Below, in pieces: positions 12,082 through 27,443 of a stretch of 37,331 nucleotides of DNA. The notes under the pieces are model-generated. The model saw nothing but the letters and a program-made list of their open reading frames with translations, did not search any database and had not been told where the DNA came from. Position 1 is the stretch's first letter. Each line of letters begins with the position of its first letter. A program made the translations under genes and the position numbers. Source of the stretch: an uncultured Fibrobacterales bacterium (GTDB taxonomy: Bacteria; Fibrobacterota; Fibrobacteria; Fibrobacterales; CAWVXU01); assembly GCA_963934255.1 (NCBI GenBank), contig CAWVXU010000018.1:1-37331 (forward strand), in the 5' to 3' direction.

Positions 12082-12897
12082 ATGAGCACAGAAGCCGATA
12101 TCAAAGCATTTGAGTTTGGAGAGCTAGACAAAAACAGGCCAGGAATTCTTTTTTTGCATGGTTGGACTTCTAGTCCTCGTGAATTACGTTTTTTGGCTCA
12201 ATACATTAGTGAGCCCATAATTTGCCCTTATCATGCTGATACCCCAAAAAAATGGAACGGAGCCTGGTGTTTCGGTCCAACACTTCCCGGCCACGCTAGT
12301 GAATCAAGTGACTTAAACCAGCTAACTAGCCTTGATTATATTCGAGCTGTTACACACTCCTTAGAAACTTTACAAGCCCAGTGTAAAAGAGTCTACATTG
12401 TAGGTATGAGTTTTGGTGGAGCACTCGCTCTTCAACTTGCAAGGTCAAACTCAATCGCAGGACTGATTTTACTAGCACCCTTTATTAATCTCACAGATTC
12501 TAAGATTCTAGGTGTATCTAAGAAATCAATTGTTCAATTTCTACCTGAGAGCACTCCAGATATCAACAAAGGTGAGCCTGGAATAAAAGACCCTGTAGCC
12601 AGATCAGACCACTTCTCATATTCTCAGACTTCTGTTCATTCACTTAAGGTTTTTTTTGATACCGTGGATCAATGTACTCGTGATCTACAAGAAGTCAATA
12701 CACCCACACTTCTCATGCATTCAACTAATGACAAGACAAGTGATTTTCAAAACTCAGTCCATATTTTATCCAAAATTAGTTCAGATGATAAACGCCTTAT
12801 TGCGCTCTCTAAAAGTAACCACATTGTCACACTTGATTACGACCGAAATCGAGTAGAACAAGAAGTGAGAAATTGGATTCTCACTCAAGAGCAATGA
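12082..12897 (+). CDS. Alpha/beta-hydrolase (carboxylesterase/monoacylglycerol lipase-like)
   Basis: LHGW, LPGH, nucleophile elbow GMSFGG, Asp in HSTNDK and His in SNHIV. Confidence 0.9.
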   Translation: MSTEADIKAFEFGELDKNRPGILFLHGWTSSPRELRFLAQYISEPIICPYHADTPKKWNGAWCFGPTLPGHASESSDLNQLTSLDYIRAVTHSLETLQAQCKRVYIVGMSFGGALALQLARSNSIAGLILLAPFINLTDSKILGVSKKSIVQFLPESTPDINKGEPGIKDPVARSDHFSYSQTSVHSLKVFFDTVDQCTRDLQEVNTPTLLMHSTNDKTSDFQNSVHILSKISSDDKRLIALSKSNHIVTLDYDRNRVEQEVRNWILTQEQ

Positions 12898-12956
12898 TTT
12901 TGTAACTTACTCATTGATCCCTAGATAAAACATCTGAACACAAAAAAGAGGTAGTC

Positions 12957-13103
12957 ATGCTCAAACAAATTTCCAACATACCAAAACACACCAAGGGGTT
13001 TGCACATTACTTGGCGTTTGTTGGTGTCATCATCTCAGTCTTTTTTATGATATTCAGCTTATACAGTTGGTGGTCTACACGCCAAAGACGTCAATCCAAT
13101 TAA
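12957..13103 (+). CDS. Small single-TM membrane protein (48 aa), not in the ORF track
   Basis: GAGGT RBS before ATG 12957; MLKQISNIPKHTKGFAHYLAFVGVIISVFFMIFSLYSWWSTRQRRQSN; fills the intergenic gap. Confidence 0.65.
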   Translation: MLKQISNIPKHTKGFAHYLAFVGVIISVFFMIFSLYSWWSTRQRRQSN

Positions 13104-13123
13104 TCATTTGTTAGGGTAGGGGT

Positions 13124-13390
13124 TTAAATACCCATTCCACTCAATCCATCAACGACTCGTCGAATCATTTTAGATAAATCAGGATGAGACTCTCTAAAGT
13201 GAGTCACCCATTTTTCAAGCTCAGTCGCTGCTACTTCATCACCTGCAAAAGTGTCTAAGGTAGGATCAAGTTCCTCTCGAATTTTTGCAGATAATTCAAT
13301 TAATGCATCGCGCTCATCAGAAGTTAGTTTTGAATGATTATCAAGTTCTTTACCTAGTGCATCTAAGGTGCTTTTTAACTTCTCTGACAT
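13124..13390 (-). CDS. DUF4404-family protein
   Basis: 88 aa, helical; C-terminus FRESHPDLSKMIRRVVDGLSGMGI is typical of the family. Confidence 0.85.
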   Translation of the reverse strand: MSEKLKSTLDALGKELDNHSKLTSDERDALIELSAKIREELDPTLDTFAGDEVAATELEKWVTHFRESHPDLSKMIRRVVDGLSGMGI

Positions 13391-13419
13391 TTTAAATCCT
13401 TGTGATTATTTGAATGGGC

Positions 13420-13722
13420 TCATTTTTGGATCACAGGGACTCGGTTTTTTATCTTAATTTGAGCCACCATTTTCCAAGGGTTCTTTAAGAGTATCAATTC
13501 TAAACCTAATATGCACATTAAAAACAAACACCACCAAGGAAAGTCAAATAAAGTAAAATCAAGGATGGACCACCAAAGGATAGAATCAACACCTTGAGAC
13601 TCTAATAGAGTAATGTTTTGGAAAACCGACGTATAGCCCACCAGAGCAACCAATAACATCCAAAGGATGTAAGTCAGTCGTAAGATCTTGCGATTAAAAA
13701 TTTGTATTTCTCTTGCTGTCAT
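13420..13722 (-). CDS. Hypothetical two-TM membrane protein
   Basis: Two hydrophobic segments; start is 13722 (MTAREIQ) or 13737. Confidence 0.6.
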   Translation of the reverse strand: MTAREIQIFNRKILRLTYILWMLLVALVGYTSVFQNITLLESQGVDSILWWSILDFTLFDFPWWCLFLMCILGLELILLKNPWKMVAQIKIKNRVPVIQK

Positions 13723-13821
13723 GCATACATTGTACAAAATGAAATCCTACATATCATAAAATAAGAAGAGCTTCTACTAGTATGTTGAGCAAGCTCACAC
13801 ATCAACCCGTGAATTTCGAAC

Positions 13822-14718
13822 TTAATTCTTTTGGGCTACAACTATAATGACATCCCCCTCAGTCATCTTTTTAGTGCCCACAAGGCCAAAGCCGCATTCA
13901 ACTAAGGCAGTGGCAACTTCTTTTTCAGTATAAAGCCTCACACTCGTTGTCTCGTAGCTGATGAGCCCATTAATTGAGGTCCTCCAAGAACAATCTAAAT
14001 AAGCCGCCTTTAAAGTTTCAGCGGGCTTTTCCAATTCACTTTCTTCATCATCTGCAATTTTCTCAATTCTTTCTTTGACACGAGACTTCACCCATCTTTT
14101 AACGTGACCTCGTTCGGTTATTTGGTCAAAATCAAGTTGTTCACTTTCATTCAAAGATTTGAAGTAGTCAAGTGAGAAGAAATCAAATACAATAATTCCT
14201 GGTGCCTTTAACTCCCCATACCAATTCTGAAGACTTATTTTGAATTCAGCAAGACTGAGATGTCCGACACCATTATACATCGCAATTAATGCCTGACACT
14301 CATTGAGGGTGACATCCATCATGTTGGCGACTTTAAATTCTAGTTGACCCTCTATTATTTGAAATTTATCCGTGGCTGTAACATAATCTGACTTCATCTG
14401 AGCCAGCTTTTTCTGAGCTTCATTGATCATTGAAGGAGAAAGGTCGCTTGCTTGAATTTTAAAATGTTTGAATAGCTCTAATGACTGCGCTCCTGTTCCA
14501 CAACAAACATCTGCTATTTTACTGACATTTTTATTTTGAAATTGAGCCTTTAGGAATCGGTTAAGATGACTTGTGGAGCCACTTTCATCGAGTTCTAGGA
14601 TATCATAAAAAGAGGCCAGCGCTTGGTATGCATCTGGCCTTAAATGGTGGTTGAGAGTGACAATGGGTATGTCTTGGTTAATATCTGACTTCTTCAATGA
14701 TTTGACCGTACATTTCAA
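13822..14718 (-). CDS. Class I SAM-dependent methyltransferase
   Basis: YQALASFYD, IADVCCGTG, SDLSPSMI, LKAPGIIVFD; start uncertain (TTG, overlapping the AP2 gene). Confidence 0.88.
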   Translation of the reverse strand: MKCTVKSLKKSDINQDIPIVTLNHHLRPDAYQALASFYDILELDESGSTSHLNRFLKAQFQNKNVSKIADVCCGTGAQSLELFKHFKIQASDLSPSMINEAQKKLAQMKSDYVTATDKFQIIEGQLEFKVANMMDVTLNECQALIAMYNGVGHLSLAEFKISLQNWYGELKAPGIIVFDFFSLDYFKSLNESEQLDFDQITERGHVKRWVKSRVKERIEKIADDEESELEKPAETLKAAYLDCSWRTSINGLISYETTSVRLYTEKEVATALVECGFGLVGTKKMTEGDVIIVVAQKN

Positions 14719-15112
14719 TTTCTTTTTGGTGACGAATAGATATGGCTTTCTTCAGAGCAGCCTCTTCGCCATATTTGCGAATCGAAACACTTGTGCGGCT
14801 TGTCTTACCAGGCTCTGACTGCCAAGTCACTTCATAAACTGGAGCATCTTTTTTCCAAGTTTTGCGTACTCCGCGAAATCCTGATGTATTATGGGGGTTT
14901 TTCTTAAAGATACGACGTTCAGTATCGGGCTTGCCTAGTTCCACCAAAATTGCCAAACGAACTTCTTTGGCTTTTTGAAAAGCCAATTCTTCTCCTCCAT
15001 TTTTGGAGTCAGATACGTATTTGCGACGGACTTCACCATCATAACTCACTCGGACAAACCATCCGCAATTAGTCTCTGTATTCATACGTGTAATATTTGG
15101 AAATTTCGCCAT
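14678..15112 (-). CDS. Stand-alone tandem AP2-domain DNA-binding protein
   Basis: Two repeats (GWFVRVSYDGEVRRKYVSDSKNGGEELAFQKAKEVR; NTSGFRGV...YEVTW...SVSIRKYGEEAALKKAISIR); no HNH motif. Confidence 0.8.
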   Translation of the reverse strand: MAKFPNITRMNTETNCGWFVRVSYDGEVRRKYVSDSKNGGEELAFQKAKEVRLAILVELGKPDTERRIFKKNPHNTSGFRGVRKTWKKDAPVYEVTWQSEPGKTSRTSVSIRKYGEEAALKKAISIRHQKEIEMYGQIIEEVRY

Positions 15113-15152
15113 TGTAACCCCTAATTAATTTTAAAATATAATTTTTTGGGGC

Positions 15153-15815
15153 TTAAAGGGTGGTTCGAATCAATTCTTTGTAAAATTGTTCTCGAATGTC
15201 TTTGGGTTGCTCTAAGTAGGCCTGAAGCTCATGTTCACGGACATAGCCTGGTATTGATTGCCTATAGATCTGGTCTTTTAGCACTTTTTTTGAACTCAAA
15301 GCTAAATATGCCTCTAAATCTACAACCTTTTCTACCACCTCTCCACGAATAAATGCGGCATCTAACCTCTGAATATGCCAAGACCAAATTTCTTCCCAAG
15401 TCTTATCAGGAGTCACAAAGTGAACATCCCAACCACTCATAGAGTCCAAATGACGTGAAGCCCAAGCATTAGTCGTTGATATCCCACCGGATTTCTCAAA
15501 ATAGTGACCGATGTCAATTATGCGTTGACCATCGAATATATACTGTAATAAATAAGCACCATTGGGGTGCAGAGCCACACGATATCTAATCATGTGGTCC
15601 TCCCCAAGCTGCTCTAGCGTGCGGTCAGCAAAATCACCTACAAAACGAAAACCTTCAGCTTTCATAGATTTTTCAAATACCGATAAGCGTACAAACTCAT
15701 CAGCAGCCGGTGTCGGCAGAGCTTCCATCACCCGAGGGACTGTATAGACAACTTCTAAAGTCTCCGCCAAACGTGAGGCTATTCCTCTAATTGTATTTAA
15801 AATTTCAATATCCAT
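15153..15815 (-). CDS. Hypothetical protein
   Basis: 220-aa ORF co-oriented with the AP2 and methyltransferase genes; no family recognised. Confidence 0.7.
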   Translation of the reverse strand: MDIEILNTIRGIASRLAETLEVVYTVPRVMEALPTPAADEFVRLSVFEKSMKAEGFRFVGDFADRTLEQLGEDHMIRYRVALHPNGAYLLQYIFDGQRIIDIGHYFEKSGGISTTNAWASRHLDSMSGWDVHFVTPDKTWEEIWSWHIQRLDAAFIRGEVVEKVVDLEAYLALSSKKVLKDQIYRQSIPGYVREHELQAYLEQPKDIREQFYKELIRTTL

Positions 15816-15959
15816 AACTAGGACTTCGGCTTTATCAACTATTGCCTTTAGTCAAACTTAAAGTACGATGTAAAAAAACAGCGAAAACTCTTCAGAAACT
15901 TGTATTTTAAGGGACTCACCTTCGTTAAATGATTGTGGCCCCTAACTCAAAGGCTTAAT

Positions 15960-16814
15960 ATGAATTCACCCCTCGCCAAAGAGGCCATAGGAATCGGTCT
16001 TCGAATTACTCATTATCAAGAGATATTTGAAACTTGGCCGGAAATTGACTTTTTTGAGATTATCAGCGAAAACTTTATGGTTGATGGTGGTAAGCCTCTA
16101 GAAAACCTTGATCGTATTCTAGAAAGATACCCAGTGGTTCAACACGGTGTGAGCCTAAATGTCGCTTCGAGTGACCCACTTAATTTTGAGTACTTAAAAA
16201 AACTAAAAGCCCTGACAATTAAAACCAAAACTCCCTTTGTATCAGACCATCTCTGTTGGACAGGTTCTCATGGCCATAACCTTCATGACCTACTTCCGTT
16301 CCCATACACAGATGCAATGGTGAAATACATCGGTGAAAAAGCACGCATTGTTCAAGATTATTTAGAAATACCTTTAGGGCTTGAAAACCTCAGCTCTTAT
16401 GTAAGTTTTTCAAATTCTGAAATGAATGAATGGGAATTTTATACTGAGGTGATTGAGGAAGCCCAATGCTATTACATGTGTGATATTAACAATATTTATG
16501 TCAGCTCCATCAATCACCAATTTGACCCCAAGGATTATATCAAAGGCTTGCGCTGGGATAAAGTTCTTCAATGTCACATCGCAGGTCACACTGAACTGGC
16601 CAATGGTACCATCCTTGACACACATGATCAAGCTGTCAAATCTAGTGTGTGGGATTTATATGACTTTGCTTGGCAGCACTCAGGCGGTTTCCCTACTCTG
16701 CTTGAACGTGATGACAACATACCATCTCTTAAGGAGACTTGGAGTGAAGCCAAGAAAGCTCTCAACGTATCGAGTCGTTGCTTAAGTATTCAAGATAAAG
16801 ATTTGAGGGTTTAG
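15960..16814 (+). CDS. DUF692/UPF0276 multinuclear non-heme iron oxidative enzyme (MNIO), RiPP maturase family
   Basis: GIGLR, EIISENFM, HGVSL, SDHLCW, DLLP, ENLSSY, DINNIYV, HIAGH, LDTHD, LLERD; start probably ATG 15960. Confidence 0.95.
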   Translation: MNSPLAKEAIGIGLRITHYQEIFETWPEIDFFEIISENFMVDGGKPLENLDRILERYPVVQHGVSLNVASSDPLNFEYLKKLKALTIKTKTPFVSDHLCWTGSHGHNLHDLLPFPYTDAMVKYIGEKARIVQDYLEIPLGLENLSSYVSFSNSEMNEWEFYTEVIEEAQCYYMCDINNIYVSSINHQFDPKDYIKGLRWDKVLQCHIAGHTELANGTILDTHDQAVKSSVWDLYDFAWQHSGGFPTLLERDDNIPSLKETWSEAKKALNVSSRCLSIQDKDLRV

Positions 16815-17753
16815 ATGAATCAAGATGAAAGTAAAATCCAAAACCTAAAAATCAACGAAATAATAAAAAGAGTCCACCCACCAGACGGACTTCAAGATTT
16901 TCAAAAGGCGTTTTCTAAAACGATGAGCCAACCTTTTCTTTTTAACAATAAAGAAAAGCAATCTTTTCAATATCAAAAAGATAAGTACGCAACTGAGATT
17001 GTTGAGCTGATGGAAGATCGTCAAGACTTAAAAGGCATTGATCGACTCAGCACTTACAATCAACAATACTGGTTTAGACTTCTCACCAGTATGCAAGGCC
17101 TCTACCCTGTATTAGTTCAACACCTTGGTCTTTACTGTTTTAATCAACTAGTCACAGCCTACCTCGTGGTGCATCCTTCAAAGTCGCCATCCCTCGATCA
17201 ACTCGATGACGAATTTCCTCAGTTTATTCTCAACGGCCACCATCGTTGGCAAAATGAAAACACATTACTTTATTTTGACATGGTAAGTCTTGATTTTATT
17301 TTCTCCAAAGCCTTTGTCTCCATGCAAAAAGAAAGCTTGATTACCTCTAGTCTGACAGCAGAACAAGTCGGCGCCCTAGCTCAAGAACCACTTCCTTTTC
17401 AACCTAGTTTTCATTTATTTAAAAGTGATTGGAATGTCCTTGAATGTAGGCGTATAGTTATCCGAAATAATTCAAATAAAGATTCAGGACAAAACTCTAA
17501 CCAAGAAGCCTTACCCATCAAGAAAGAAACTTGTCAATTGGCAGTGTATCGCAAGAATAATCAACTATTCATCGAAGAACTTCACCCTCTGGCTTTTAAT
17601 TTAATAGAAAATTTGTTTCAAGGTACTAGCCTCTCCGACGCCCTAGGAGAGCTAAGTGAAAAGGTGTCTGAAGCTGAATTAGCCTATCTCAGTAGCAATA
17701 TTCAATCATGGTTTCAAAAATGGTCTCAACTCGGATGGTTTGCATCTAAGTAA
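16815..17753 (+). CDS. DUF2063-like MNIO partner protein (HvfC/BufC-like)
   Basis: RLSTYNQQYWFRLL...YPVL..HLG..F...AYL..HPS.S..L; C-terminal WFQKW..LGWF; abuts the DUF692 gene. Confidence 0.88.
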   Translation: MNQDESKIQNLKINEIIKRVHPPDGLQDFQKAFSKTMSQPFLFNNKEKQSFQYQKDKYATEIVELMEDRQDLKGIDRLSTYNQQYWFRLLTSMQGLYPVLVQHLGLYCFNQLVTAYLVVHPSKSPSLDQLDDEFPQFILNGHHRWQNENTLLYFDMVSLDFIFSKAFVSMQKESLITSSLTAEQVGALAQEPLPFQPSFHLFKSDWNVLECRRIVIRNNSNKDSGQNSNQEALPIKKETCQLAVYRKNNQLFIEELHPLAFNLIENLFQGTSLSDALGELSEKVSEAELAYLSSNIQSWFQKWSQLGWFASK

Positions 17754-17774
17754 TCCGGACTATCTAAAATAAAT

Positions 17775-17810
17775 AAAAAACCATCCACTCAAAAAGTGTC
17801 TGGTTTTTTT
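17775..17810. terminator. Bidirectional intrinsic terminator
   Basis: AAAAAACCA-TC-CACT...AGTG-TC-TGGTTTTTTT between convergent genes. Confidence 0.75.
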
Positions 17811-17852
17811 CAAAATTGAATTGAAGAAGCAATCTCTATTTAAAAATAAAGC

Positions 17853-18338
17853 TTAAATGAATTCTAACTCAGCAAAATACTCCAAATAGGCACCCTGATC
17901 CCAAGCGTTGCCAAAAGGACAACTCTCGTCAAACGCGCGTGAGTAAGCCAATAGTTCTTCAATTTCAATCAAAGCCCAGGGCTGACCATCTAAGCTAAAA
18001 AGCACCGCTTCATCAGTTTCTGACCAAGCGAGTTGGAAACTTTGGGTTTCTTTTGACCCTTGAATAGAATCAACTGAACCATACTCATTAGGAAGAGGAG
18101 GTTGCTGTCCCTGCTCTTGCCAAGCTAGTGAGTCTTCAAAGGTGGGGCATTCTACAACGTTATAAAGAAGTACACTGACAACGGGCGCTTCACCATCATC
18201 ATCTGTTAGATAAAGCCAACAAGATTTCTCATCTTCTTCAACAATGGCCACACGCCCACTAGTTGGGTTTTCTAAAAAGACAAACTTTTTATCAGGATTT
18301 GCATCGCTCGGTGCTTCTTCAAATGTTTGTAGACCCAT
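17853..18338 (-). CDS. Hypothetical acidic protein (DUF2251-like / SUFU-associated N-terminal-like)
   Basis: IVEEDEKSCWLYL, LLYNV, LAWSE.DEAVLF..DG.P, AYSRA, PFGNAWD; AAGGAG RBS supports start 18338; family call is tentative. Confidence 0.6.
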   Translation of the reverse strand: MGLQTFEEAPSDANPDKKFVFLENPTSGRVAIVEEDEKSCWLYLTDDDGEAPVVSVLLYNVVECPTFEDSLAWQEQGQQPPLPNEYGSVDSIQGSKETQSFQLAWSETDEAVLFSLDGQPWALIEIEELLAYSRAFDESCPFGNAWDQGAYLEYFAELEFI

Positions 18339-18373
18339 GGGTACTCCTTGTTTGCACAAAAAGTAACAAAGTC

Positions 18374-18700
18374 CTAACCATGTCGGTATGATATACCTTT
18401 GATAAATTTAAGTGAGGTCGTCTTACCCCAGTATTTTGTTCTCAATCTCCAGAGATACATCTCATCATCTAATTCTTGCATATTAGGCTGAACCATTTCA
18501 AAATACTTGAAATTGATTGCATCTCCTAACTCATTGATGATGGGCTCCTGAACATGGTGAGGATAATGTTTTTGAAAATCAATGTCAGTCGCTTTTGCTT
18601 CTAGAGTTACGGGTTTGTGGAAAAAACGTGATTGCGCTTCTACTATATTCCAAGCAAGGAGGACCAGTACACCGATCATTAATGTGAAGTTTTTGAACAT
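18374..18700 (-). CDS. Small secreted hypothetical protein
   Basis: AAGGAG RBS; signal peptide (IVEA|Q); 108 aa; no Cys. Confidence 0.7.
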   Translation of the reverse strand: MFKNFTLMIGVLVLLAWNIVEAQSRFFHKPVTLEAKATDIDFQKHYPHHVQEPIINELGDAINFKYFEMVQPNMQELDDEMYLWRLRTKYWGKTTSLKFIKGISYRHG

Positions 18701-18964
18701 GGGATTCTCCTTTCCTCACACTTTCATGTGAATACTTTATAGTCCCTGTCTATTAATAGTATACGGATGTTTGAACTCAAAAACTTAGTGCTTTGATAGA
18801 AAGGTGTTCTTTATTACAATCTTTACCTCAAAAGAATCAAATACTTTAAATACCTTAAGCATTTTAATCTCTTCGTTTCAGCTCAATTAAAACAAATATC
18901 CCACACATCATAATTATCTCAAATTTGATACATTTGTTTAAAATTAATACAAAGAGACTTTGAA

Positions 18965-19516
18965 ATGATTTTAGAAATATTAAAAGAACGCTCTCAATCA
19001 TGTGAGCTTTGCAATTCAAAAACTGATCTCAATGCACATCTTGTTTCTCCTAAAATCGACGAAAATAATGACAACTGTGTACTTCTTTGCTCTAACTGTA
19101 TCACTGAAATTCAAAAAGAAAACCTTAATGTCACTCATTGGTTTTGTCTCAATGAATCCGCCTGGACCCAAGAAGCTCCAGTACAAGTTTTAGTTTATAG
19201 ACTTTTATCTCAACTTAGTGAAGATTGGTCACGTGACTTACTTGATCAAATATATTTAGAAGATAAGATAAAAGAATGGGCCGAACTTGGCTTGAATGAT
19301 GATGTTGTAAAAGTCTTCGATTCTTATGGAACTGAACTTTTAGAGGGTGATACTGTTTCTTTGATTAAAAGCTTAGACGTCAAAGGTGGAGGCTTCACAG
19401 CCAAACAAGGTACAATCGTCCGTGGGATTAGACTTGGTAACGACCCTACTCATATTGAAGGCAAAGTCAACGGAACGTCAATCATGCTCAAAACAGAATT
19501 CCTTAAAAAGAATTAA
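18965..19516 (+). CDS. phnA: PhnA/YjdM-family zinc-ribbon protein
   Basis: CELC..LCSNC; C-terminal DSYGTELLEGDTVSLIKSLDVKG..AKQGTIVRGIRL..HIEGKVNG..LKTEFLKK. Confidence 0.9.
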   Translation: MILEILKERSQSCELCNSKTDLNAHLVSPKIDENNDNCVLLCSNCITEIQKENLNVTHWFCLNESAWTQEAPVQVLVYRLLSQLSEDWSRDLLDQIYLEDKIKEWAELGLNDDVVKVFDSYGTELLEGDTVSLIKSLDVKGGGFTAKQGTIVRGIRLGNDPTHIEGKVNGTSIMLKTEFLKKN

Positions 19517-21884: not shown

Positions 21885-23057
21885 ATGACACAAGTTAAGA
21901 ATTCATATATCGCAATGGCCCGAAAATGGCGCCCACACTCTTTTGTGGAACTTACCGGTCAAGAGCATGTCGCTCAGACTCTGCGCAATGCCATTGAAGG
22001 TGATCGCCTTGCTCATGCCTTTTTATTTACTGGTACGCGTGGCGTTGGCAAAACAACATCAGCTCGCATCTTAGCTCGTACGCTCAATTGTAAAGACAAA
22101 GCAGATGTCCTAGTGCCATGTGGTCAATGTCAAAGCTGTAAAGAAATCGACACCGGTTCCTCCATGGATGTCATCGAAATTGATGGAGCATCCAATAACG
22201 GTGTGGATGATATCCGCGAATTAATTGAACAAGTCAAATATGCATCGATGGATGGAGGCTATCGTGTGATCGTCATTGATGAAGTTCACATGCTTACCCC
22301 TGCTGCTTTTAACGCACTTTTAAAAACTCTTGAGGAGCCACCTCAAGGTGTACTCTTCATCTTCGCTACAACTGAAGTCAACAAAGTTCCACAGACGATA
22401 TTGTCTCGTGTGCAGAAGTTTGATTTCAAAAGAATTGGACCCGGCGCCATCAAGGACCGTCTTGTATACATCTGTGGTCAAGAGTCTATTGAATTTGAAG
22501 AAGAAGCTCTCAGTATTATTTCTGAAAAAGCCGACGGCTCGATGCGTGATGCTCTCACGTTCTTTGATCAGGTATACGCATTTAGCGGCAAAAACCTCAC
22601 GACTGCTGCGACCCTCAAAATTTTAGGCATCCCTCCTGAAGAACTTTTCTTCAATCTCATGGACGCCATAGCAAATCACAACCAATCATCTTGCCAACAA
22701 ACCATTGGTCAATTTTTGGAACGTGGTTTAGAGATCTCTGACTTCTTAAATGGCTTGTTGAAGTTTCAACGCAATTTACTTTATGCTCGAATCAAGGGTA
22801 TTCAAGCTGTAGACATCGGTCTCAGCGACGAAGGCTTTGCTAAGCTAGAGCCATTATCAAGCCAATTTGGCCATGGTGACCTTCTGAGGCTCGCCAAAAT
22901 GACCTCTGACTTGATCTTCCAAGTTAAATCAGCTCCACAGCCTCGTATCACTCTTGAAATGGGTATTGCGCGGATGGCTTACCTTGATCGCACCGAAACC
23001 CTTCGGGAATTGATGAAAAAGTTGGACCAAGCCGATACGGTAAAAAAAAACTCCTAA
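21885..23057 (+). CDS. dnaX: DNA polymerase III gamma/tau, gamma-length product (0 frame)
   Basis: ARKWRP, GTRGVGKTT (Walker A), Cys4 zinc module, IDEVH, SR, DGSMRDAL; stops after domain III at the A9 run. Confidence 0.97.
   Translation: MTQVKNSYIAMARKWRPHSFVELTGQEHVAQTLRNAIEGDRLAHAFLFTGTRGVGKTTSARILARTLNCKDKADVLVPCGQCQSCKEIDTGSSMDVIEIDGASNNGVDDIRELIEQVKYASMDGGYRVIVIDEVHMLTPAAFNALLKTLEEPPQGVLFIFATTEVNKVPQTILSRVQKFDFKRIGPGAIKDRLVYICGQESIEFEEEALSIISEKADGSMRDALTFFDQVYAFSGKNLTTAATLKILGIPPEELFFNLMDAIANHNQSSCQQTIGQFLERGLEISDFLNGLLKFQRNLLYARIKGIQAVDIGLSDEGFAKLEPLSSQFGHGDLLRLAKMTSDLIFQVKSAPQPRITLEMGIARMAYLDRTETLRELMKKLDQADTVKKNS
23042..23050 (+). other. A9 slippery run (transcriptional slippage or -1 frameshift site) in dnaX
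   Basis: GTA AAA AAA AAC TCC TAA; the -1 frame is open from 22988 to 23623. Confidence 0.8.
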
Positions 23058-23623
23058 TTCCTAGTGAGCCCGTTGTTGCCCCTAAGACGATCACAGTCGG
23101 TGGCAAAGCTTCAAAAACGAATGAATCCAAATATCCCAATGTTCATTACTCAGTGGTTGATATCAATCACTCCTGGGAGCTCATACTCCAAGATTTCAAT
23201 AATTTTGAACCCTTTCTCGCTACTCTCCTGAGTGAGACACTCCCATCCAAATCAGACTATACTGCTGATCCTTATGATTTAACAATCACCTTCCCATTTA
23301 GTAAGGAAGCAAACTACGAGTATTTCACATCCAATAGGGATAATGTCGTGAAGTTCGTTGACTACTTACAGGAGATTTTAGACACAGCAATTCGCTTGTC
23401 TATTAAGTTAGAAGCGGTCTCTCTTGAGCATAAGGAAAAGGTCAAAGAGCAACACAGAAATGCAAATTCTAAGGATTATCTTTTTATATTAGAAAAAGAG
23501 AAATATCCGTTATTACAATTAGTGCAGGATTACTTTAACACAGACTTTAAAGGCACCTATACGATTGAGGCTAAAAAACCAGAAACAAAGGACAAATTCG
23601 ATGAACATGCAGAAGATGCTTAA
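23042..23623 (+). CDS. dnaX: Tau-specific C-terminal part of DnaX (-1 frame continuation)
   Basis: KKKLLIPSEPVVAPK...YSVVDINHSWELIL...LQLVQDYFNTDF is continuous with ORF 23153..23623; Pro-rich linker, then a tau-CTD-like pattern; lies between dnaX and ybaB. Confidence 0.78.
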   Translation, partial: KKKLLIPSEPVVAPKTITVGGKASKTNESKYPNVHYSVVDINHSWELILQDFNNFEPFLATLLSETLPSKSDYTADPYDLTITFPFSKEANYEYFTSNRDNVVKFVDYLQEILDTAIRLSIKLEAVSLEHKEKVKEQHRNANSKDYLFILEKEKYPLLQLVQDYFNTDFKGTYTIEAKKPETKDKFDEHAEDA

Positions 23624-23912
23624 AGAAATGCAAAAAATGCAGGGCAAGTTACAAGAAGCTCAAAGTGACCTTGAAACTCAAAGTTTTACTGCTGAAGCTG
23701 GTGGTGGTATGGTAAAAATTACAGTCAATGGCAAAGGTGCTTTGACTGACCTTAAACTAGATCCTGAAGCTGTTGACCCTGATGATGTAGAAGCTCTAGA
23801 AGATCTTTTGATTGCTGCTTTTAATCAAGCTATTGCTGATAAAGATTCTGCTTCTCAAAATGCTATTGGTGGATTAACTCAGGGGATGAATATCCCTGGA
23901 ATGCCTTTCTAG
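23601..23912 (+). CDS. ybaB: YbaB/EbfC nucleoid-associated protein
   Basis: MQKMQ, AGGGMVKITVNG, VDPDDVEALEDLLIAAFNQA; AAGGA RBS supports start 23601. Confidence 0.95.
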   Translation: MNMQKMLKEMQKMQGKLQEAQSDLETQSFTAEAGGGMVKITVNGKGALTDLKLDPEAVDPDDVEALEDLLIAAFNQAIADKDSASQNAIGGLTQGMNIPGMPF

Positions 23913-23945
23913 TTTAGTCAAAATTAATCTAGTTTTGATTTTATG

Positions 23946-23970
23946 AGCACCTCAATGAGGTGCTTTTTTT
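23946..23970 (+). terminator. Intrinsic terminator
   Basis: AGCACCTC-AAT-GAGGTGCT plus T run. Confidence 0.9.
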
Positions 23971-24024
23971 ATCTATAGTTTTGAATGATTATCATCATGA
24001 ACAACCGTCCCAAGGCACAAGCTA

Positions 24025-24768: not shown

Positions 24769-25530
24769 TTAATTGTCAATTTTATCAAAAACAATCTTTA
24801 GGTCCTCACGAATCATGTGCGTAGGAGCTTTTTTCATTTTGTTCCCGGTTAAGCTGATCAAAGTGAGGTTTTTCAAATGACCAATCTCAGCAGGAAGTAA
24901 CTTAATTTGATTATCATCAAGCATGATTTCTTTCAGGTTCTCTAAGCCGCTAATGCTCTCAGGGATTTCTTCAATCATATTACCTGAGATAACAAATTCC
25001 TCAAGCAGTGACAAATCTCCAATAGAACTTGGGATGGAAGCAATATCATTATTATCTAGATAAAGCTTAACAAGTCCTGTGCAGTTTCCAATGTTTTCTG
25101 GGATTGCAGGGATCATGTTATCATGAAGTGAAAGTTTTTGTAAATTTTTGATTTCAAAAAGCCCTTTAGGTAGTTCAACTAATGAATTTTTTGCAACATT
25201 TAATCGATTGAGTTTGGTTAATTTTGAAATCGAGTTAGGTAATTCCGTTAAGAAATTATAGCCTACATAAAGATTTTCAAGATGAGCCAATTGACCAATT
25301 TCCTCAGGTAAGCTCATGAGGTCATTTTCACTCAATGAAAGGCTTTTCAAATTAGTCAGCTGGCCTACTTCTTCGGGCAGGTCAACCAAATCATTTCCAT
25401 CGATTATAAGTTCTTCAAGTTCTGTTAGCTCCCAAAGCTCGACTGGTAAGATGTGTAGTTTCTCATTTTTGATATCAAAAACTTTTGTGCCTGATTTCTT
25501 GGCCTCGGCAATTTTCTCTAAAATAGTCAT
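24769..25530 (-). CDS. Leucine-rich repeat protein
   Basis: About 9-10 repeats of 23 aa, LxxLxLxxNxLxxLPxxIG; GGAG RBS supports start 25530, 8 nt after the dxs stop. Confidence 0.93.
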   Translation of the reverse strand: MTILEKIAEAKKSGTKVFDIKNEKLHILPVELWELTELEELIIDGNDLVDLPEEVGQLTNLKSLSLSENDLMSLPEEIGQLAHLENLYVGYNFLTELPNSISKLTKLNRLNVAKNSLVELPKGLFEIKNLQKLSLHDNMIPAIPENIGNCTGLVKLYLDNNDIASIPSSIGDLSLLEEFVISGNMIEEIPESISGLENLKEIMLDDNQIKLLPAEIGHLKNLTLISLTGNKMKKAPTHMIREDLKIVFDKIDN

Positions 25531-25538
25531 ATTAGCTC

Positions 25539-27443
25539 CTATAATAACTGCTGACGAACAGCTTCTAAAATTTTCTCTGGTGAATATCCACAATCGTGAT
25601 GTAATTCTTCTTGGCCACCGTGCTCAATAAATTCATCCGGTATACCTAATCTCACAAGGGGTTGCGTAAACCGATGTTCTGACATAAACTCAAGGATTGC
25701 ACTTCCCATTCCACCCATAATACACCCATCTTCAACCGTGATAAATTTCTTGTATTTGTTCATTGAAAGTGCGAGTAATTTTTCATCAAGTGGTTTGACG
25801 AAACGAAGATCGATATGACCAATAGCAATATCTTCTGCCTTAAGCGTCTTAACAACTTGTTGAGCGTAGTTGCCAACAGTGCCGATTGTGATCACACAAA
25901 GTTCATCGCCTTGAGACAATTCACGTGCAGTTCCCACTTCAATATTTTGCATAGGTACACGCCAGTCTAGAGTCACGCCTGCACCTCTTGGATATCTAAT
26001 ACTCCAAGGTGAATCAACTGATTGAGAAGCTGTATACATTAAATGACGAAGCTCTGGCTCATCCATAGGGGCCGACACAACCATATTTGGTATATGACGC
26101 ATATATGCTATATCAAATGCGCCTTGATGTGTTGCACCATCGGCACCTGCTATGCCACCACGGTCAAGACAAAAAACAACCGGTAGTTTTTGAATAGCCA
26201 CATCATGTACAACTTGATCATAAGCTCGTTGCATAAAAGTGGAATAAATATTACAAAATGGAATAACACCTTGAGTTGCAAGTCCAGCAGAGAAAGTCAC
26301 CGCATGTTGCTCTGCAATACCAACATCAAATGCACGGTTCGGCATCTCATCCATCAAAAACTTCATTGAACAACCCGATGGCATTGCCGGAGTCACACCC
26401 ATTATTTTATCATTAGCACGAGCAAGTTCAACCAGAGTATGGCCAAAAACATCTTGATATTTTGGTGGCTTTTTTAGTGTTGGAGCAGGTTTTTCCATGA
26501 CACCTGAATCGGGGTCAAATTTACCTGAAGGTGCATGCCAAGTTAAAGGGTCTTGCTCTGCGCTTGAGAAACCTTTACCTTTTTTGGTACTAATATGAAG
26601 GAGTTTAGGGCCATCAATTTTTTTAAGGTCTTCTAAGATATTAATCAAATGGTTGACATCATTGCCATCAATGGGGCCAAAGTATCTGAATTTAAATGAT
26701 TCAAATAGATTAGATTGTTTGGATATAGCGCCTTTGACTGACTTCTCAACTCGACTAGCAATATCTCTGGCTCCTTTGCCAAATTTACTGAGTTTGCCGA
26801 GGCCTGTCCAAATTTCATCACGAAGCTTGTTATACGGACCAGATGCAATGACATCTACCAAGTATTCGTTAAGTGCACCGACATTGGGGTCAATTGACAT
26901 ATTGTTATCATTGAGTATGACAATAATATTTGATTCCAAAAAGCCTGCATTATTCAAAGCTTCAAAGGCCATACCACCAGTCATGGATCCATCACCAATC
27001 ACAGCAATATGTTGACGGTCTCTATTGCCTGAAGCACGAGAGGCTATCGCCATCCCAAGAGCAGCAGAGATGGAAGTTGAACTATGACCCACACCAAATG
27101 TATCGTACTCTGATTCGGCACGTTTAGGGAAAGGTGCAACCCCCCCCTTGGCTCTATTGGTGTGAAATTCATCACGACGACCCGTTAAAATTTTATGACC
27201 ATATGCTTGGTGGCCAACGTCCCAGACAATTTGGTCATCCGGAGTATTGAAAACATAGTGCAAAGCAACAGTTAATTCAACGACACCAAGCGATGCAGCA
27301 AAATGTCCACCATGTAGGGCAGCATTATTAATGATGAAATCTCGTAGCTCTTGTGACACCTGACCCATTTGGTCGGCGCCTAATTTACGTAGATCTTCTG
27401 GAAGTCCAATCTCTTTGAGGAGGCCTTTGGCTTCAGCTGGCAT
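25539..27443 (-). CDS. dxs: 1-deoxy-D-xylulose-5-phosphate synthase
   Basis: GGHFAASLGVVEL, WDVGHQAY.HK, GDGSMTGG..NDNNMSI, IAEQHAV, YSTFMQRAYDQ, DGATHQG. Confidence 0.98.
   Translation of the reverse strand: MPAEAKGLLKEIGLPEDLRKLGADQMGQVSQELRDFIINNAALHGGHFAASLGVVELTVALHYVFNTPDDQIVWDVGHQAYGHKILTGRRDEFHTNRAKGGVAPFPKRAESEYDTFGVGHSSTSISAALGMAIASRASGNRDRQHIAVIGDGSMTGGMAFEALNNAGFLESNIIVILNDNNMSIDPNVGALNEYLVDVIASGPYNKLRDEIWTGLGKLSKFGKGARDIASRVEKSVKGAISKQSNLFESFKFRYFGPIDGNDVNHLINILEDLKKIDGPKLLHISTKKGKGFSSAEQDPLTWHAPSGKFDPDSGVMEKPAPTLKKPPKYQDVFGHTLVELARANDKIMGVTPAMPSGCSMKFLMDEMPNRAFDVGIAEQHAVTFSAGLATQGVIPFCNIYSTFMQRAYDQVVHDVAIQKLPVVFCLDRGGIAGADGATHQGAFDIAYMRHIPNMVVSAPMDEPELRHLMYTASQSVDSPWSIRYPRGAGVTLDWRVPMQNIEVGTARELSQGDELCVITIGTVGNYAQQVVKTLKAEDIAIGHIDLRFVKPLDEKLLALSMNKYKKFITVEDGCIMGGMGSAILEFMSEHRFTQPLVRLGIPDEFIEHGGQEELHHDCGYSPEKILEAVRQQLL

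Follow-up and report, generated by a model that had tools for sequence, protein, structure and literature searches.

The dnaX gene of this uncultured Fibrobacterales bacterium stops directly behind a run of nine A, and a second open frame continues in the -1 register. The locus raises the question of how full-length tau could be made when its C-terminal part is not in frame with the rest of the gene. A first-pass annotation made from the letters alone had proposed that normal decoding gives gamma here and that tau needs slippage at the run. The window in this text is the whole stretch of DNA that was analysed (37,331 nt).

Reading frames of the dnaX locus

Frame 0 of dnaX scores 416 bits against TIGR02397 (dnaX_nterm, cut-off 250), matches PF13177, PF22608 and PF12169 in Pfam, and ends with GTA AAA AAA AAC TCC TAA. 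A GTG-started ORF at 23153-23623 is nested within the open -1 frame (Table 1). The run length was varied by script to obtain the possible products. Messages with A9 and A8 give products of 390 aa (..VKKNS) and 392 aa (..VKKTPNS), respectively, those with A11 and A12 give 393 and 391 aa, and those with A7, A10 and A13 give 578, 579 and 580 aa. All numbers of the first-pass annotation, namely the stop at 23057, the A9 run, the -1 frame, the 579-aa product of A10 and the gamma-length products of A8 and A9, were confirmed.

Table 1. Features of the dnaX region, in window coordinates
Feature	Position	Strand	Evidence
dnaX frame 0, 390-aa gamma-like product (AAA+ ATPase, lid, domain III collar)	21885..23057	+	TIGR02397, Pfam
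A9 run, putative slippage site, GTA AAA AAA AAC in frame 0	23042..23050	+	sequence, contigs, phylum
TAA, stop of frame 0 (A9 and A12 messages)	23055..23057	+	sequence, computed products
TAG, stop of +1 frame (A8 and A11 messages)	23062..23064	+	sequence, computed product lengths
-1 frame, 211 aa; from 23051 Pro/Ala/Lys linker and tau C-terminal domain	22988..23623	+	HMM, fold
ybaB/ebfC, overlaps end of tail ORF	23601..23912	+	PF02575 E 4.8e-32; TIGR00103 above cut-off
Terminator-like hairpin and T tail, would close dnaX-ybaB	23945..23975	+	consensus match only

A YbaB match is also present in 111 of 118 related dnaX loci. The promoter scan gave 8 sites versus 5.4 ± 2.5 in shuffled sequences. 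The best named relatives of this dnaX share 55-59% identity and are, by record title, Fibrobacter, Fibrobacteraceae, Hallerella and Fibrimonadaceae, which puts the genome within Fibrobacterales or close to it; the DNA of the window was found in marine metagenomes. Three RNA runs (X16, X18 and X19), available as contigs, contain fractions of 0.17, 0.09 and 0.06 of the sequence words. A single dnaX and a single tau tail are present in the genome, which is 92% complete.

The -1 frame encodes the C-terminal part of tau

An HMM built from 64 in-frame tails of relatives was searched against the six frames of the genome, and the -1 frame was its only match (E 4.9e-17). The supposed homology of this frame to the tau tail was thus borne out. 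The Pfam family DnaX_C (PF20964) was matched by 24 of 85 aligned tails, with a best value of 2e-8, and the window's own tail was not among them. No family was matched by the -1 frame in Pfam and NCBIfam, and a profile of the 85 tails gave no match at E 10 against PDB sequences.

The predicted structure of the tail (pLDDT 89) has a type-II-KH-like fold. It aligns with E. coli tau domain V (5fku_E, 520-593) over 74 residues with Z 6.0 and rmsd 2.5; DnaA domain I scores above tau (Z 8.3), and other KH-like folds also match. Foldseek returned nothing at E 0.001 with this model, its best hit being DnaA domain I (0.033) and tau 5fku_E ranking sixth (0.061). Region 520-593 of E. coli tau binds Pol III alpha. 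The Pfam description of PF12170 supports this binding.

By the tail HMM, the PF20964 matches in relatives and the fold, the second ORF is the C-terminal part of tau. Because the tail lies in the -1 frame only, and dnaX and the tail are each single in the genome, tau depends on recoding here, as had been proposed. This confirms the reading, drawn from sequence, that dnaX is split by the A9 run and that the long tau form would need a one-base slip.

The A run is conserved across Fibrobacterota

dnaX was detected in 282 of 296 genomes of the phylum. From these, 120 loci were taken, namely the 30 best and another 90 picked by hand so that every family was represented, of which four were taken for their short frames. 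Two were excluded, L167 (genome G128, where the contig ends early) and L139 (the 5' half of the G242 gene), and in the other 118 the run was scored no farther than 60 codons from where domain III ends. An A9-A13 run was found in 96 of these 118 partly hand-picked loci, with A9 in 11, A10 in 63, A11 in 17, A12 in 4 and A13 in 1. One further locus has A12 at codon 64, which brings the total to 97 of 118. A7 was found at the site in one locus and A8 in none. Of the 116 rows of the tree described below, 21 have no run, and the 12 rows of family f8 are all among them. A10 runs are very rare within whole genomes, yet one of them sits in dnaX: the dnaX run is one of two A10 runs in the complete genome G274, one of three in G005, and one of about 10 in G039, G029 and G004.

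The tail is in frame with the run in 64 of the 96 loci, needs one additional A in 18, and needs one A fewer (or two more) in 14. Shifted tails match the in-frame HMM in both directions, with weak matches in five short-tailed genes of family f3, some of which are not among the matches listed. In the three nearest families (f1, f2 and f4), dnaX of all five genomes carries an A10 run and reaches a stop 4-5 codons from where this run begins, with differing flanking codons. The tail was confirmed in the -1 frame in four of them, and a contig end truncates the fifth. Their dnaX genes cluster with that of the window on the tree, with an SH-aLRT value of 82 (unstarred) and a flag for long branches. 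Conservation of both the run and the frame break, which the first-pass annotation had raised, was therefore found in relatives.

Continuous dnaX genes in relatives had been named as evidence against a recoded split. Such genes do occur, and 51 of 55 genomes of the sister family f3, taken without picking, have a frame of more than 500 aa. However, they do not refute recoding, because they retain the same A10, and past it each of the other two frames runs into a stop.

Several loci differ from this common form. In f8 (L125-L136, for example G281 and G287), dnaX ends about 80-100 codons past domain III and the tail HMM matches weakly; judged from sequence, DnaX of this family appears to be a shortened single form in which the recoding site and a large part of the tail are gone. 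Five f3 loci of genera g11 and g12 (L184-L188), together with L101, L104 and L107 (Fibrimonadaceae or Fibrimonadales titles), carry A9 and a short +1-frame tail of 92-114 codons. Their stops lie mostly 16-54 codons away, not directly behind the run, and the site there looks like a decaying or altered version. The G242 gene (L139/L140, contig C350, about 66400) has a second frame break in the ATPase domain, near residue 150-165, besides its A11 run; this second break may be an assembly error. Among cultured strains, Fibrobacter intestinalis ATCC 43854 (L051, NZ_FUWU01000051.1) has a split dnaX with A11 whose tail needs one more A, and records titled F. succinogenes have a continuous dnaX with A10. 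F. intestinalis ATCC 43854 and a Fibrobacter with a continuous gene are thus a ready cultured test pair.

Outside the phylum, no run of nine or more A was found at the site in any of 38 loci whose titles point to neither Fibrobacterota nor Bacteroidota, of which two are cut short and one has A9 130 codons later. Three loci with non-Fibrobacter titles (L046, L060 and L061, titled Oscillospiraceae, Eggerthellaceae and Sodaliphilus) were excluded from the 38. They carry a Fibrobacter-like dnaX with 57-58% identity and the same A10 context, and are probably, to judge by these genes, mislabelled or mixed bins. A10 is present in 11 of 12 loci titled Bacteroidota, seven of them split and four continuous; in the remaining one (L094) the script had picked another P-loop gene, as judged by eye.

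Stops behind the run and changes of register

In 85 of the 95 genes with a run (the 96 without L006, which is cut by a contig end), each of the two non-tau frames meets a stop no more than 9 codons past the run. From positions further down the same tails, 12.2 such genes would be expected, a comparison in which kin are not independent. Such double stops are found in most genes of 17 of 19 families, in half of the genes of one family and in none of another.

A quick IQ-TREE tree was made from 116 dnaX N-terminal parts, with L140 and L200 excluded for their short N-terminal part; 30 of its 112 branches are open. Among the 95 run-bearing rows, 18 changes between the split and the continuous state were counted, gains and losses taken together. 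The number falls to 13 without five split rows, which may reflect assembly errors or a length difference of a single base.

Transcriptional slippage as the proposed mechanism

These comparisons suggest that the A9 run of dnaX is a programmed site of transcriptional slippage by RNA polymerase, to which we give a probability of about 0.75. RNA polymerase would realign on the A9 template and produce messages with A runs of varied length, which ribosomes would then read normally. Messages with A9, A8, A11 or A12 would reach the TAA at 23055 or the TAG at 23062 and give a gamma of 390-393 aa, and those with A10 (or A13, A7) would continue through the linker and the C-terminal domain to give a tau of 578-580 aa. 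We infer the slippage in mRNA, its efficiency and the production of both proteins. The site would be ancient in Fibrobacterota. Since slippage would fill all three frames, the genomic register would be free to drift by replication indels at or beside the run. Most lineages would then make tau by default, and in the window's lineage and its three closest families tau would come from slipped messages. The "reversed logic" of the first-pass annotation stands insofar as tau would need the slip here, but it would be one of the registers between which a slippage site drifts.

Polymerase slippage is preferred to a ribosomal frameshift, as had been suspected, because the run has a length floor of 9 although a -1 shift by the ribosome needs no more than a heptamer, because tails occur in all three registers, because stops are kept in both non-tau frames as in Thermus, because runs of nine or more A are avoided in the ORFs of this genome, and because E. 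coli-type stimulators are missing at the site. With synonymous-codon shuffles of 2010 ORFs as reference, 29 runs of 9 or more A were observed versus about 149 expected, and A8 runs are near expectation (226 versus 263). A threshold of nine or more A has been tied to slippage-prone runs in the pertinent part of Baranov 2005. Depletion of such runs may also stem from replication slippage, according to the relevant section of PMC1088944, and 28 other ORFs or ORF starts in the genome tolerate A9-A10.

The strongest competitor of polymerase slippage is programmed -1 ribosomal frameshifting on A_AAA_AAA or A_AAA_AAC, which would make tau, alone or mainly, from uniform A9 messages. Both heptamers are present in frame at the site, and 17 further loci share with this one a tail in the -1 frame. 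The dnaX part of Atkins 2016 (PMC5009743) also describes a Chlorobium phaeobacteroides candidate with E. coli-like stimulators. The same part states, against this, that A_AAA_AAC and A_AAA_AAA are far less shift-prone than A_AAA_AAG in E. coli, and A_AAA_AAG is absent in frame at the site.

Signals that could stimulate a ribosomal shift are likewise weak at the site. The upstream Shine-Dalgarno duplex, computed with an assumed standard anti-SD as the 16S 3' end of the host was not found in the assembly, is -2.3 kcal versus a background of -1.9 ± 2.5, and the 60 nt on the 3' side of the run are not unusually structured (fold z -0.42). The hairpin named in the first-pass annotation is present in the minimum-energy fold; as its main stem begins about 22 nt past the run, the view that it lies too far away for a classic stimulator holds, and directly at the run end there is a weak 6-pair stem. 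Across the phylum such signals are mildly enriched, which speaks for the ribosomal reading: SD-like duplexes of -5 kcal or lower occur upstream in 31 of 96 loci versus 12% in the background, and 3' folds with z < -2 in 19 of 95. In-frame A_AAA_AAG is found in 5 of the 96 run-bearing loci, and the same-family genome G001 shows all three E. coli-like signals (in-frame A_AAA_AAG, an SD duplex of -6.8 and a fold z of -3.0). Ribosomal shifting would nevertheless leave unexplained why runs always have at least 9 A, why 14 tails lie in the +1 frame and why stops are kept in both other frames, and we regard it as unlikely.

Origin of the split and use of the second ORF

The split would disappear if the true or majority allele had A10 and dnaX were continuous, either through an assembly error or through a length variant at the DNA level. 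Homopolymers are mutable and prone to error, and A10 in frame is the form of most Fibrobacteraceae. Single-base length variants do occur, since the N-terminal proteins of G166 (A11, split) and G051 (A10, continuous) are identical. For the window, however, A9 was found without indel in contigs from three studies, of which one is possibly the source, and these contigs represent the majority form only. They belong to X1 (the possible source), X5 and X8, three of four public DNA runs compared; the fourth, X6, has no piece over the A run. The contig pieces of study P2 (22470-23515) and study P4 (22989-23322) both span the run with 0 gaps. The five genomes of the nearest families, with their stops 4-5 codons past the run start in differing flanking codons, also argue against it, and the double stops would imply slippage for gamma even with A10. 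Assembly error is an unlikely cause of the split, and the wider explanation by error or variant is already largely refuted and very improbable.

Equally improbable is that the tail is translated separately from the GTG at 23153, so that the cell makes only gamma and a free domain: this GTG sits 7 codons before a conserved Trp and would cover most of the folded domain, but it is unlikely to be a genuine start because in the nearest split relatives whose tail is complete, four in number (G001, G005, G004 and G007), no ATG, GTG or TTG lies between the run and the Trp and because similarity to the G004, G007 and G001 tails extends upstream past the GTG to the run, while a Shine-Dalgarno-like motif before it is not evident by eye and the conserved run and stops would be left unexplained.

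Phase variation was considered as the working mechanism and rejected, since the split form is fixed throughout entire clades and tau-less cells would result. Tau is essential, as stated in the relevant part of the Caulobacter preprint (bioRxiv 10.1101/2022.11.10.516041).

Implications

In this lineage an essential replication protein would rely on a decoding error, and annotation would show a truncated dnaX and a hypothetical protein. A broader reading, which we hold at roughly even odds, is that the A run is one ancestral and very efficient slippage device common to Fibrobacterota and Bacteroidota, with all frames evenly filled and a nearly neutral register, for which no fewer than 13-18 switches would have occurred among the 95 genes sampled. 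If this is true, "Thermus-type" and "reversed" dnaX would be one system, hundreds of seemingly ordinary continuous dnaX genes would secretly make gamma, and register and run length would form a natural series of tau:gamma ratios. The data bear on why bacteria retain two DnaX forms and on which ratio is tolerated.

Other features of the window

At 15933-17753 (+), a DUF2063 protein comes after a MNIO family bufferin-type maturase (NF050167, above cut-off); among the Met-started ORFs at 12800-19000, none stood out as a small Cys-containing precursor. A leucine-rich-repeat protein at 24769-25593 (-) lies immediately behind dxs, with LRR family matches below cut-offs. A small protein at 14678-15112 (-) has an AP2 DNA-binding domain (E 2.3e-7, below cut-off).

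Comparison with known systems

In E. coli, dnaX uses a -1 ribosomal frameshift at A_AAA_AAG with an upstream SD and a 3' stem-loop (dnaX sections of PMC3711429 and PMC5009743). The window's dnaX shares with it the location of the site within the gene, a run of lysine codons and the two products, which here are predicted, but it lacks A_AAA_AAG, the SD and a near stem-loop, and its polarity is opposite. In Caulobacter, by the part of the preprint on DnaX (bioRxiv 10.1101/2022.11.10.516041), the second form arises by ClpXP proteolysis. Tau and gamma both arise there, as they would here, and selection for two forms has been shown; unlike in the window's dnaX, the route is post-translational and involves no frame change.

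Thermus thermophilus dnaX slips at A9 with stops close behind in both non-tau frames (dnaX sections of PMC1088944 and PMC5009743). The A9 run and the close stops are the same in the window, where tau and gamma would likewise come from one gene. The difference is that tau is templated in Thermus, whereas here frame 0 stops at 23057 and tau would need one more A. Tau is in the templated frame in the 64 of 96 run-bearing relatives with in-frame tails, and the continuous Fibrobacteraceae genes are Thermus-like.

The closest parallel is the two-ORF dnaX described in Antonov 2013 (PMC3711429). Its dnaX section reports a GeneTack cluster of 17 such genes from 12 genera in which tau needs recoding, with poly-A (A7-A10) at the junction in 12 of 17; transcriptional realignment was proposed, and the occurrence of two shift directions was taken as its sign. 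Chloroherpeton and Chlorobium are named there, and Fibrobacteres appears as one genome in Table 3. The corresponding section of Atkins 2016 (PMC5009743) repeats the two-ORF dnaX and adds that tau and gamma can exchange roles through a single base. A literature search, in which subscription papers were poorly covered, gave no work that deals with register switching or with slippage in the dnaX of Fibrobacter.

The window shows the same adjacent ORFs, -1 shift and poly-A junction, with the shift conserved in relatives and tau expected from recoding. It is a lineage instance of a known layout, as the first-pass annotation had suspected. It differs in lineage, and the same run in continuous dnaX genes or with +1-frame tails is not reported in that section of Antonov 2013. 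The layout has been known since 2013, and the addition is a phylum-wide picture of one conserved, putative slippage site with a drifting register. This picture illustrates the Atkins 2016 idea, as given in its dnaX section, that one base reverses the roles of tau and gamma, and provides a comparative argument on the question of polymerase versus ribosome that was left open in 2013 and 2016 for two-ORF dnaX.
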